Of a stretch of DNA of 64,000 bases, positions 13,185 to 34,021 are shown piece after piece. The number at the start of each line of letters is the position of its first letter. Position 1 is the stretch's first letter. The stretch covers positions 51,460,001 to 51,524,000 of the forward strand of contig OZ024745.1 of the NCBI GenBank assembly GCA_964016885.1. The letters run 5' to 3'. A program made the translations under genes and the position numbers. The DNA comes from Eledone cirrhosa (lineage: Eukaryota). The notes beneath the pieces were generated by a model. That model was given only the letters and a program-made list of their open reading frames with translations, made no database searches and was not told the origin of the DNA.

Positions 13185-13378
13185 AACGAAGGAAATGTGG
13201 TAAGGGACCAGGTGGACCATAACGCACCAAAGTACTCAATACTTGAGGTAGTAGAGTGGGTAATAGAAACCAGTATGACCCCGACAGCTGAGCTCAAGCC
13301 GTTTCGACGGCTAATTCTGGACTAGAATTAGCCGTCGAAACGGCTTGAGCTCAGCTGTCGGGGTCTTACTGGTTCCTA
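13185..13378. mobile_element. Family-A hairpin element (~55-bp stem plus ~80-bp tail)
   Basis: 13264-13378 forms a near-perfect hairpin; (TA)n on both sides; homologues at 19493 and 33828. Confidence 0.85.
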
Positions 13379-13693
13379 TATATATATATATATATATATA
13401 TATATATATATATATATATATATATATATATATATATATATATATATATATATATATATATTTATATATATACACAGATGTATATACATACACCGATATA
13501 TATATATATATATATAAAATATGGGGAGAAAGAGGAAAACTGCGTGGTTGCACATGGGTTATATATATATATATATATATATATATATATATATATTAAA
13601 TTGTTAAACAATATTCTGTCAAACAATGCGTTTTACAGTAGATTGGAAGCACTCAACGGCAAAAAATAATTTTCAGGAGTTATTAATATTAAA

Positions 13694-13965
13694 ATTAATA
13701 AAATAGATGTTCTTTTGATCAATTACATTTTATTATACATATTTCGGATGTACGACAGTACGTCCCCATCAGACAAAATATAATGATACATAACATACCC
13801 TGAGATGTTAAATGGTTAAGATACTACCTTGATTAAATCTTAACCATTTAACATCTCAGGGTATGTCATGTATCATTATATTTTGTCTGATGAGGACGTA
13901 CTGTCGTACATCGGAAATATGTATAATAAAATGTAATTGATCAAAAGAATATCTATTTTATTAAT
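13694..13965. repeat. 129-bp inverted repeat (inverted PLE pseudo-LTR, family C) carrying an HHR
   Basis: 13694-13822 is the reverse complement of 13837-13965 with few mismatches; 14-nt spacer. Confidence 0.9.
13880..13932 (+). ncRNA. Type I hammerhead ribozyme (mirror copy on - strand at ~13727-13779)
   Basis: attttgt-CTGATGA-ggacgtac(tgtc)gtacatcg-GAAA-tatgta-TA-ataaaat; helix I attttgt/ataaaat; the mirror arm has ...catccGAAA but core CTGATGG. Confidence 0.7.
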
Positions 13966-13989
13966 ACTTATATTTATATATATATGTCT

Positions 13990-15350
13990 GATCAGATACA
14001 TTTCAGTATACAGTAAGGGTGCATAAAATATATATCAATAAATTTACCGGGTACATATATTTCGCAGAAAAAGAGAAGAAAAGACAAGATTATGCATAGT
14101 GATACTGAAGAGAAGCGAAGCGAACGAAGAAATAAGTTTTACATGGATGAATACTCAGAACGTAAATATAACGTTCATTATGCTGTTTATAATATTTATA
14201 ATGATAAGTAAAAAAATTAAATTAAGGATAAAAAAATATTGTTAGAATTTAATAAAAAAATTTAGTTACATATTTAATTAATATTTAATTAAAATATATT
14301 AAGATGTATTAATAATATAAGGGTTTAGATGGGTATGTTATGTTATAGATTATAAATTATTTAAATGTATAGTATTTTACATTATAAAAAATCTAGTATT
14401 GTTTATTTGATTAAAGTAAGTTTGGCAAAATTATATTTAGCCAGAATTTATTAATAGTTGTAAGTCAAATCTTAAACATCCAAATAATTCCAAAAATTAC
14501 AAACATTTACGAGAATTTACAAAGGAATAAGTACTTAATTAGAAGTATATATTAAAACCATTTAAAAATTCAGACTATAAATCAAGACTATAAAAATTGA
14601 GATTATAAAAAAACAATAAGGAAGTTTAAAGGAAGTTAAAAGAGATTTTTTTAAAAACTCAAAAGACTCCAAGGATAGATAAAAATCTCTTAAAAAAAGT
14701 ATAAGAAGTTATAAAAAGTTATAAAAAGTTATAAAAATTCATCTTAAAATATAATTTAATACTGCTCTTTATTATCCATTTCATAAAATCAATGATATAA
14801 ACTATGTTAACTTTAATTCCAATCACCCGAGATCCGTTAAAAACACTATAGTAAATTCAGTACAGCAACGTATTTCTAGAATTTCAGCGAATAAAAATAT
14901 ATTTGAAGATAAGGCACAATATTATAACGAAGCTTTAAGTAGAACATGCTATAATAATGAAATTAAATACATTGATAATAAAAATATGCCAACTAACCAT
15001 AATTATAATTATAAGAAACCTAGCACTAACTCTAAAATTAAAAGAAGAAATAGAACTAGAAATATATTATGGTTCGCTCCCCCTTTCTCATTAAGTATTA
15101 ACACTCCAATAGCTAAACAATTTGTTAAAGCTCTAGATAAATCTTCTCCCAAGACACATAGGTATCACTCAATCTTTAATAGACATACAATTAAACTATC
15201 ATATTCTACCACTATGAATTTAGCGCACCATAATTTGCCTTGGTTGCCCTTGAAATATATATAATAAAATAATTATGGTTTTATAAATATAGTTTCCATT
15301 TATTAATATATTGAATATTTACTCCACTATACTGTTGAGTGCTTTATATC
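13990..15350 (+). pseudogene. Decayed, AT-rich Naiad-like PLE (RT C-terminus/linker best preserved at 14760-15230)
   Basis: INYVNFNSNHPRSVKNTIV..QRISRISANKNIF..AQYYNEAL and RRNRTRNILWFAPPFS..RYHSIFNRHTIKLSYSTT, parallel to the 15771 element. Confidence 0.8.
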
Positions 15351-15813
15351 AGTTATAAACATTTTTAAGCTTGTTGAATCCCAACAAATTAAATATAACA
15401 TCTGCATATATATATATGTATATATATATAAAAATATAAATGTATATATATATATATATGTGTATATATATATATATATATATATATATATATATATATG
15501 TGTATGTATATAAATATAAATGTATATACATATATATATATATGTATATATAAATATATGTGTATATATATATATATGTATATATATATATGTATATATA
15601 TATATATATATATATATATATATATATATATATATATATATATATATATATATATATGTGTGTGTATATATATGTATATGTATATATATACATGTATATA
15701 TATATATATATATATATATATATATATATATATATATATATATATATATATATATATATATATATATATATTACCCTTCTCCTTTTGTAGAGCACCTCAC
15801 TTTCTTTGCCATC

Positions 15814-31700: not shown

Positions 31701-32511
31701 TTTGTATGCATGTATAAATGAATGTATGTACGTATGTATATAGTATTTATCTCTCTCTTCCCACCCCCTCTCTCTCTCTCTCTCTACACACACACACATA
31801 TAAATATATATATATACATATATATATATACATATATATATACATAAATATATATATACATATATATATATACATATATATATATATATATATATATATA
31901 TATATATACATATATATATATATATATATATATGCATATATATACATACATATATATATACATATATATACATACATATATATACATACATATATTTATA
32001 TATACATATATATATATACATATATATATGTATGTATGTGTATATATGTATATATATATGTATTTATATATGTATGTGTATATATATATATTTATATATG
32101 TATGTATATATATATATATGTATATATATATATATGTATGTATGTATATATATATATATATATATATATATATATATATATATATATATATATATATATA
32201 TGTATATATATATATGTATGTATATATATATGTATATATATGTTGGTATGTATATATATGTATGTATATATATATGTATATATATGTTGGTATGTATTAT
32301 ATATGTATGTATATATATATGTATATATATGTATATATATGTATATATATGAATGTATATATATGAATGTATGTATATATGTATTTATATATATATATAT
32401 ATATATATATATATATATATATATATATATATATATATATATATATATATATATATATATATATATATATATATATATTTATATGTGTGTGTGTATGTGT
32501 GTGTGTGTGTA

Positions 32512-33230
32512 TGAAATTAAACCGTTAGACAGGTCACTCTAGAACAACTCGAACCCTTGATAAGATTGTAATAGGACCAATATACAATCCATAGTACTAA
32601 AATTTAACCAATTAATATTAATACTCACAACACATGCATATTTGAATATTACCAGAACAATTATCACACTACATCCACCATACACATGCTTTTCATACAC
32701 AGGCATCTGTGTCTGCTTAATATTCTTTTATACCTGTATTGTATTATGTGATACCTTTGCCATACTGTGATATATATATATATATATATATATATATATA
32801 TATATATATATATACGCTTAGTACCATTGCTTGTTTCTTACCTGGTTATTCTGTGCATGCCTAACACATCTGCACTCTTTCTATACGCTGGCATATGAAC
32901 TGCAAATATCCTAGTTTTGTGAGTAACTTTCTTCTTAATTCCTCTATAATGGTTGCATTATTCTATTCTAATCTTTGTCGTATCCACTGATACTGACCAC
33001 ATCATCTTTCCTCTTTAAATATGACACTGTTAATGACAACACTAACATCTATGTATCTTTACGATTGTTTTGTGGAATAGGAGGTTAATTATATGTCTAA
33101 ACTTTGCTAGTGCTCCGATGAAACCAATCGAATGTTTGTAAGAAACGATTGTCAGCAATAAAATGTTTTGAACATAGTTTTGATTATTCTGCAATTTATA
33201 TTCCGGCTAGTATAAATAATATTTTATTAT
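32512..33230 (+). mobile_element. PLE 3' fragment between (TA)n tracts
   Basis: HHR at 33111 followed by AATAAA; microsatellite flanks. Confidence 0.45.
33111..33157 (+). ncRNA. Hammerhead ribozyme-like motif (U4>C core, poor helix II)
   Basis: tgct-CCGATGA-...-GAAA-cgattg-TC-agca; helix I tgct/agca, GUC triplet. Confidence 0.55.
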
Positions 33231-33254
33231 TATGTATATACATAGATATATATA

Positions 33255-33772
33255 TATGCATGGGTTAACCATGATCCGCTAGGTGGTTCTCCCAGAGTGA
33301 GGCTCTTCCATTGCACTGCGGTTGGGTTGACCTTTGCGATCGCCCCAAATGTTGTATGTATGTTGGGAGAGATGACCCCTTAGCCTTTGTCAAGGCAGAA
33401 TTCTAGGAGAAGGAAAACTCTGATATAACACCTGCAACCCTGATGGTATCCAATGATGTTGACTTGTTCTTCTTTTTGGTAAATATCATCTTGGTTAAGA
33501 GAGTGGGACTGGCTTTGTGCAGTGCCTTTGCTCACTATAAAAGCTTCACAGCACAGGAATTGCTTTATATCTAGAGATCTCCCTGCACTTGTCGTCACAT
33601 GGTACCATGGGCCCAGCACTATGTGTCAATAATTGTCACAAGTGTAGTGTTTGTACCAGAGTTTCCAAGTCGGTGGCTGGACTAAAAAGTCACACTTGTT
33701 CAGCGCATCGGTAGGGTTTCTCCTACATGGATATAAAGCAGTGGCCGTACTCGAAAACGAGTTGGCAGCCAC
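33255..33772 (+). mobile_element. Probable RTE-type 5'-UTR-derived repeat
   Basis: GC-richer block between TA tracts with ggagaaggaaaactctgat, a motif typical of RTE 5' UTRs. Confidence 0.35.
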
Positions 33773-33827
33773 CATATATATATATATATATATATATATA
33801 TATATATATATATATATATATATATAT

Positions 33828-34021
33828 AGGAACGAGTAGGTCCCCGACGGCTGAGCTCAAGCCGTCTCGACGGCCAATTCTGCGTCCAGAATTGGCCGTC
33901 GAGACGGCTTGATCTCAGCTGTCGGGGTCCTACTCGTTCCTAATACCCACTCTACTACCCTAAGTATTGAGTATTTTGGTGCGTTATGGTCCATCTGGTT
34001 CCTTACCACATTTCCTACGTT
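33828..34021. mobile_element. Family-A hairpin element (opposite orientation to 13185)
   Basis: Hairpin 33827-33942 plus tail; (TA)n on both sides. Confidence 0.85.

Follow-up and report, generated by a model that had tools for sequence, protein, structure and literature searches.

The window analyzed here, a 64,000-nucleotide stretch of Eledone cirrhosa DNA (assembly GCA_964016885.1, contig OZ024745.1, forward-strand positions 51,460,001 to 51,524,000), carries three dispersed hairpin elements at positions 13186-13378, 19492-19666 and 33828-34021, where the first-pass annotation, made from the letters alone, had placed them. The three are 84-89% identical, and each consists of a tail of approximately 78 nt and a palindrome with arms of approximately 58 bp, with (TA)n on both flanks. 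The first copy, which reads tail first on the plus strand, is best understood as a minimal head-to-head insertion of a Penelope-like element (PLE) of the Hydra clade between (TA)n runs, and it belongs to the subfamily of a long parental copy, L208, that is described below. Its tail (13186-13262, minus strand) corresponds to the parent segment between the arm of the pseudo-long terminal repeat (pLTR) and the region just 5′ of the start of the open reading frame (ORF), and ends at a fixed place, site a (CTTCGT|TAT). The tail-bearing arm (13263-13324, minus strand) holds the 3′ strand of stem II of a hammerhead ribozyme motif, GAAA, stem III with a GAGCTC loop, GUC and the 3′ strand of stem I, and its inner end is the A at 13323, predicted to be a transcription start (+1), plus one base. 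The tail-less arm (13324-13378, plus strand) is an inverted copy with GAAA at 13337-13340 and a predicted cleavage position after 13359, and it ends within (TA)n at a second fixed place, site b (TTCC|TAT). As had been pointed out, each arm of this copy contains GAAA-CGGC..GCTG-TC-GGGGTC and no CUGANGA.

The other two copies lie in the opposite orientation, with the tail-bearing arm and the tail on the plus strand. The copy at 19492-19666 belongs to an older subfamily (with a GGAAAAAGTATG arm), and its tail-less arm is without the outer ~20 nt. The copy at 33828-34021 is of the GGAACGAGTAGG subfamily and carries two rare mirrored A>G changes. A fourth copy, absent from the earlier annotation, is found at 1587-1672 on the minus strand, where the tail is retained and the hairpin has collapsed to TAG|TTCCTA.

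Such elements are very abundant. A 23-nt tail motif has 43,605 exact matches across the 3.0-Gb genome, a lower bound on copy number, with none for a reversed-pattern control; in 274 kb of unselected sequence, a count of 10 tails (4 from the window) extrapolates to roughly 85,000-110,000 copies. The modal hairpin length is approximately 116 nt, and 328 of 386 tail ends continue into (TA)n. Opposite-strand joints within the same few bases are present in raw restriction-site-associated DNA (RAD) reads (three runs from one other study) and in contigs from two further runs, and the raw reads also show (TA)n loose ends at the boundary of the arm. The palindromes are thus not an artefact of assembly, because reads of another study show the same joints and (TA)n at the arm end.

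The source of the hairpins was reached by a genome search with the longer loop sequence that a few copies carry. The arm and tail together form the terminal repeat of long retroelements, whose order in 30 loci picked by ORF is arm, tail, ORF, 3′ untranslated region, arm. The tail just precedes the ORF start, and in 12 long copies it runs on into the ORF. In L208 there is a 751-codon open frame (Met at codon 33; L208:6579-8738, within G000:C1:11222501-11232500) that encodes reverse transcriptase (RT) plus GIY-YIG. The pLTRs of L208 are 99.4% identical and its inverted copy is 98.8% identical, and L208 is a young full-length copy with an intact frame. The first copy in the window matches it with 97.2% identity over 145 nt and 100% over 56 nt. 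The suspected PLE origin of the hairpins is hence borne out by an RT-encoding parent with the same arm and tail.

By eye, the L208 protein carries the motifs RWR, DKT, DIES, YRDD, CxCx5C (CNCPDRSIC), VIY..YIG, CxxC (CNLC) and CxH (CKH), and no CCHH; comparisons of this ORF with Pfam and with PDB returned no families and no matches, respectively. A single ORF with RT and GIY-YIG, partial-tandem pLTRs, an inverted 5′-truncated copy and a tail at one end are the properties of an endonuclease-positive (EN+) PLE, and the last two are typical of PLEs (PMC8557442). The Hydra clade is defined in the same source by RW(R/K), DKT, CxCx5C, CxxC and CxH, lack of CCHH, a C-terminal endonuclease (EN), a (TA)n target and a length of <3 kb. 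Our family has these protein motifs, the C-terminal EN and the (TA)n insertion, whereas a canonical CUGANGA hammerhead was not found; its unit, measured in L208 from one arm end to the equivalent one (6408 to 9526), is approximately 3.1 kb and slightly exceeds the stated length. On the basis of protein motifs matched by eye and the (TA)n target, the family would be placed in the Hydra clade, and we regard it as virtually certain that the hairpins represent a new family of Hydra-clade PLE with an insertion architecture that is already known. The family is undescribed in the literature searched; as this did not extend to subscription journals, Repbase, Dfam or the repeat library for O. vulgaris (PMC13282606), where a related family may be present, it may be catalogued already.

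Members of the Hydra clade, including Hydra-1_Obim, share with our elements a single ORF with RT and C-terminal GIY-YIG, common motifs, (TA)n targets and a hammerhead near the 3′ end (PMC8557442), and by eye the parent protein follows Hydra-1_Obim motif by motif. Nevertheless, three terminal motifs of this family were not found in the supplement of that paper, the listed Hydra hammerheads are all CUGANGA with a short stem II, whereas here the core is UUGANAA with a stem II of ~55 nt and a stem III of 5-6 bp, and our family differs from the clade in having over 43,000 ends. Likewise, the canonical PLE unit (PMC8557442, PMC3846280, PMC2377424) resembles ours in its head-to-head inverted copy, its promoter-like motifs in the pLTR and a one-sided tail consisting of sequence before or at the ORF start, but its tail measures 30-40 nt compared with 78 nt here, where most insertions are of the minimal form. 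In L093, L091, L106 and L113, sequence of other PLE families is attached directly at the hairpin centre or close to it, as insertions or mixed junctions.

The hammerhead half noted in the arms is real, and its other half is found 55 nt upstream in the parent, which reads CCCC-UUGANAA-stem II-GAAA-stem III-GUC-GGGG. In 94 long arms collected with the core unconstrained, the core positions are U3 in 89, U4 in 94, G5 in 91, A6 in 92, A8 in 92 and A9 in 93, and N7 occurs in all four states (A 60, C 21, T 7, G 6), although these arms are related and represent a handful of independent changes. A conserved core around three stems and a UH cleavage triplet, as expected of a type I hammerhead, are present, and the three-way junction is the minimum free energy (MFE) fold for L182 and L208. 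From its sequence, the parent is therefore predicted to hold a complete cis-cleaving hammerhead motif, a U3-A8 variant. The same covariation is known from Schistosoma PLE hammerheads (PMC4209133), of which that of Cercyon also has a palindromic loop 3; in our family, by comparison, stems II and III are long and the predicted start site lies inside loop II. A parental PLE end with CTGANGA, as suggested earlier, was not found. Two genome searches gave 44 and 42 heterogeneous chance matches, mostly loop inserts, and one candidate, L093, proved to be an arm attached to an unrelated PLE, in which CTGATGA belongs to antisense coding sequence. The parent was missed by such searches because its core is UUGANAA, and CUGANGA-only searches will miss a ribozyme of this kind. 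The proposal that the arms are a trans-hammerhead substrate is likewise not supported, given the complete cis motif of the parent.

We consider it probable, though well short of settled, that each hairpin is a dead-end PLE insertion, in which the two ends of a (TA)n target, once cut, each primed a cDNA on a single RNA, and both cDNAs ran off at the predicted capped 5′ end of that RNA and were then joined. Such a course would account for the mirror-image ends of PLEs, which have long been a puzzle. This reading builds on a parent, its hammerhead motif, two fixed outer ends, a one-tail rule, copy-specific symmetric junctions and an inner edge, all of which are observed. Transcription from the 5′ pLTR would start at the A of TTAGTCC in loop II, giving an RNA whose 5′ end contains the 3′ half of the ribozyme only; because this is half a ribozyme, that end could not be cut. 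The whole downstream hammerhead would be cut at GUC, leaving 41 nt common to both RNA ends (6348-6388 in L208). The EN would then cleave (TA)n, and the two 3′ ends may anneal to UAU at sites b and a, approximately 59 and 139 nt from the start. Both cDNAs would be copied to the RNA 5′ end, often with a C added opposite the cap, and end joining with trimming, microhomology or short templated inserts would give the 194-bp stub. In perhaps one case in ten a cDNA would extend further, possibly by jumping to the RNA 3′ end through the 41-nt stretch, and so produce long or full-length copies.

The inner edge of the arms suggests such a run-off at a capped RNA start. Arms end 11-22 nt upstream of GAAA in 152 of 190 cases, and by eye 11 of 129 tails lead into long arms. 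Position 18 upstream of GAAA is the A of TTAGTCC, inside hammerhead loop II, and TATTTA is found at -29 relative to the predicted start. The initiator consensus is YYANWYY, which TTAGTCC fits, and RT is known to add C opposite the cap. Where arms end at the +1 A with an insert, G precedes in 10 of 11 (only G or A being possible, since T or C is scored as templated), a small count that is partly duplicated across arms and in which some G may be microhomology. In the set with both arms long, the cDNA base after GGACT is A in 43 cases (templated), G in 12 (partly a parental variant), C in 11 and T in 2, so that non-templated C exceeds T (p=0.02); all 44 long arms carry T at this place. Among the loose-end places listed, the +1 A is the best supported in reads and contigs besides AATT restriction sites, in each of the four runs compared, with one comparable site 6 nt downstream in the reads. 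Transcription of D. virilis Penelope also starts within the upstream pLTR (PMC2377424).

Two other families in the same genome, B and D, show the same edge pattern as the family described so far (family A). In long copies of family B, TATAAATA lies ~30 nt before the edge, and the edge falls outside stem II. In family D, whose stubs (L030:1817-2040 and 2633-2780; L141:2355-2580; L299:5321-5710) have their edge at TTAGTTT with an extra G, a G stands before AGTTT in 6 of 9 truncated arms, compared with T in all 21 long arms. The stretch from predicted start to predicted cleavage site is 41 nt in family A and, by eye, 45-46 nt in families B and D. Separately, L351 and L356 (G000:C1:43259605 and 44860430) carry A-runs of 10-13 nt at the junction, on the cDNA side, which resemble the outcome of reiterative slippage on the UUU that immediately precedes the predicted start.

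Several points weigh against run-off at a capped start, in addition to the relatedness of the arms and the size of the G count. The edge is not sharp, with peaks at 12 (28 ends), 17 (24), 18 (15) and 19-22 (47) of the 190, and 44 of 100 ends in the both-long subset pass the +1 position, some with A-runs, while microhomology deletions are common. This breadth implies a contribution from multiple starts, stalling of RT or trimming at a later stage. In the RAD data, AATT cuts confound depth. Arms end at the predicted cleavage site in about 8 of 100 rows, with no clear peak by eye, and the hammerhead region folds no better than shuffled sequences (z -0.35). The start site, cap and cleavage are all predictions from sequence. 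Moreover, read-through or circular RNA would equally give the long copies that are attributed above to a putative strand jump.

Some of these observations would suit a different account of the edge, in which two-ended priming is correct but RT stalls in stem II, perhaps on a circular or read-through RNA, or the tips of unstable palindromes are deleted after insertion. The broad edge of 11-22 nt, the ends that pass +1 and the many microhomology deletions inside arms are as this account would have it, circular templates have been proposed for PLEs (PMC4209133), and TTTAG|TCC can also be read as a splice acceptor rather than a start. However, a stalling RT would first have to pass stems III and II, which are stronger, and in families A and D alike the edge coincides with an initiator-like A and an extra G. 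In family B it falls 30 nt behind a perfect TATA box and outside stem II altogether. We therefore judge stalling or tip deletion to be unlikely, although it is the most serious of the alternatives.

Priming at two ends of the target is supported by the outer ends and the tails. Both outer ends are constant: site b reads TTCC|TAT and site a CTTCGT|TAT, and in each case TAT is shared with the target. One tail per insertion was found in 72 of 74, 50 of 50 and 91 of 95 cases (four being without tail) in three sets that overlap and are mostly tail-anchored, a choice that under-represents pairs without a tail. Places with a two-tail pattern number 178 genome-wide, some of which are neighbouring elements, compared with 5,886 hairpins in one junction subclass alone. 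Past each of sites a and b, at a distance of 6-8 nt, an 8-bp stem with a 2-nt bulge is predicted to form. The one past site b occupies 13234-13257 (minus strand) in the first copy and begins 8 nt past the site, while its twin lies 6-7 nt past site a in the parent. The predicted hairpin past site a is the local MFE structure, whereas that past site b is the MFE structure in a fold of the whole element and not in a 48-nt window; subfamily variation among 423 tails falls in the loop and bulge of the latter.

Head-to-head palindromes in PLEs have been ascribed to self-priming on an antisense template, with the matter left open (Arkhipova et al., PMC3846280), and the idea in the first-pass annotation that the second arm is re-copied from the first is of this kind. 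If a single cDNA folded back or primed itself in this way, the close agreement of the two arms at subfamily sites (184 of 191 comparisons), the position of the junction within the self-complementary stem II and the short templated inserts copied from the arm at junctions would all follow, and some full-length copies (of the L253, L268 and L208 type) are compatible with it. Fold-back predicts, however, that the tail-bearing arm is longer. This arm is longer in 39, shorter in 40 and equal in 12 of 91 cases (31 longer and 33 shorter in another set), and single-strand fold-back fits poorly because neither arm is systematically longer. The spectrum of ends is the same on tail-bearing and tail-less arms, the extra G/C is equally common on both (8 versus 8), and blunt perfect palindromes without a loop exist (3 of 50). 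At 8 of 30 ORF loci, furthermore, a short tail-bearing inverted piece stands beside a long ORF piece without a 5′ tail (as in L241); such loci require a second priming on RNA, and fold-back of one cDNA cannot give them. Re-copying of one arm from the other is accordingly a rather improbable explanation, and less so only than the last one considered below. For two primings, the fixed use of one site a and one site b, together with subfamily concordance, points to one RNA, although two RNAs from one source in an asymmetric complex would also fit.

The joints between the arms differ from copy to copy. Among copies not picked by hairpin, 66 junction types were found in 78 measurable hairpins (5 of 83 being unmeasurable), and the commonest occurs four times. 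Each hairpin is therefore made anew. The earlier description of ~190-bp hairpins with a common stem, tail and loop thus stands for the stem and tail, but not for the loop as a constant of the family. Within a copy, the arms match, as had been anticipated: the outer 10 nt are concordant between arms in 54 of 66 copies, compared with 18% between copies, and long inserts are 96.1% identical within a copy and 90.9% between copies (n=13). In no more than 7 of these 13 inserts, however, does the partner arm rank first or joint first as a match, so that either one RNA molecule or two RNAs from one source may have served as template. As an observation apart, the inner end reads GC|GTCC in L272, L217, L215 and window 33884, in contrast to TA|GTCC in the parent.

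All four mirrored substitution pairs that had been quoted from the window are present. Nevertheless, mirrored substitutions are mostly parental subfamily differences that were set in both arms at insertion, and later mutations are uncompensated. Mirrored non-consensus changes number 23 in 66 copies. A single misaligned short junction (L134) accounts for 5 of them and members of older subfamilies (L147, L273, L015, L277) for 12-14, which leaves 4-6 private mirrored changes compared with 153 unmirrored ones, dominated by the CpG type. Two of the quoted pairs, aacC/aacG and gcAgag, mark subfamilies. An exception is gtCtcg in the 33.8-kb copy: GAAA>GAGA is mirrored in 2 of 98 places, one of which is this copy (by eye, among the first 100 of 192 rows). 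At this site, the sole one tested genome-wide, A-to-I editing combined with mirrored copying is unsupported.

These counts give no support to the suggested structural selection, nor to a pre-miRNA or siRNA source, for which stem changes should be compensated; an Rfam scan of the window returned no families. A self-propagating non-autonomous 194-bp element resembling a miniature inverted-repeat transposable element (MITE) or short interspersed element (SINE), or an RNA hairpin selected as a source of small RNA, is very improbable indeed and refuted as the origin of the family, because the junctions are copy-specific, the ends are asymmetric with no link to a transposase, there is no tRNA, unmirrored changes predominate, and an intact RT-encoding parent has identical ends, although the modal length of the hairpins is in its favor, as is the single loop shared by the best BLAST matches, which were picked by likeness to the query, and a minority of re-mobilised or co-opted copies is possible. 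More specific candidates were rejected on similar evidence. A MITE or other DNA transposon disagrees with the one-sided tail, the copy-specific junctions and the partner, which is an RT element; a tRNA-derived SINE disagrees with the diverse junctions, and ARAGORN found no tRNA at a relaxed threshold; and a parvovirus-like flip/flop arrangement and a DNA transposon with long terminal inverted repeats were dropped after the parent had been found, the junctions being heterogeneous. The recently reported non-LTR retrozymes (bioRxiv 10.64898/2026.07.22.740005) are likewise short PLE-related repeats with a type I hammerhead sequence, but they are described as tandem units with a whole ribozyme, whereas the present units are inverted, dispersed and carry half the motif, and this identity was also rejected.

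If the hairpins are indeed joined run-off products of two primings, a broader scheme can be put forward, but only tentatively, as we hold it to be somewhat less probable than not. Hydra-clade PLEs may replicate in an LTR-like manner without tRNA, with an RNA that extends from a start inside, or at the edge of, their own hammerhead to the cut by the downstream ribozyme, a terminal redundancy of 41-46 nt, twin strong-stop cDNAs primed at two hairpin-marked UAU sites, and strand transfer for long copies. Retroviral minus-strand strong-stop DNA is similarly a short run-off cDNA from the RNA 5′ end that involves terminal redundancy, and in twin priming of L1 two primers on one RNA also give an inversion. 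In contrast to these systems, the overlap of the two cDNAs here would be complete, each would be primed at a fixed site close to the 5′ end, and target DNA instead of tRNA would serve as primer. Neither strong-stop DNA or terminal redundancy in PLEs nor a two-ended run-off mechanism was found in the literature searched, which excluded subscription journals. PLE papers ascribe the structure to endonuclease resolution or antisense self-priming with the mechanism open, and state the origin of the inverted repeats, the one-sided tail and the role of the hammerhead to be open (PMC8557442, PMC3846280). If true, an LTR-like scheme would account at once for the pLTR and the inverted copy, for a tail on one side only and for what the hammerhead does. 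Moreover, the minimal products of this family run to tens of thousands, each formed independently, and its young parent has kept its frame intact, so that the models become separable through junction counts. The family also indicates that repeats which are abundant in such genomes and pass for "hairpin SINEs" or "MITEs" can be PLE stubs.

Further repeats were observed in the window and in other loci. A member of family B, at window positions 1701-1890, is another PLE stub with tail and hairpin, set in (TA)n, and each of its arms carries a canonical CUGAUGA hammerhead, while family D has a hammerhead-like core, CAGAAGA, in which U4 is replaced by A. The tail motif CTCTAC..GTATTGAGYAC of family A (window 13231-13257) is found again in family B and also, by eye, close to the 3′ end of a coral Hydra consensus, the one that the supplement of PMC8557442 prints before Hydra-1_Obim. 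A canonical type I hammerhead of a further repeat family is located at window position 53178 on the minus strand, with many more in the fetched loci. Finally, a palindrome of ~370 bp between (TA)n runs at approximately 20955-21330 is a member of another family, and 466-bp spaced repeats lie at 19958, 20424 and 20890.

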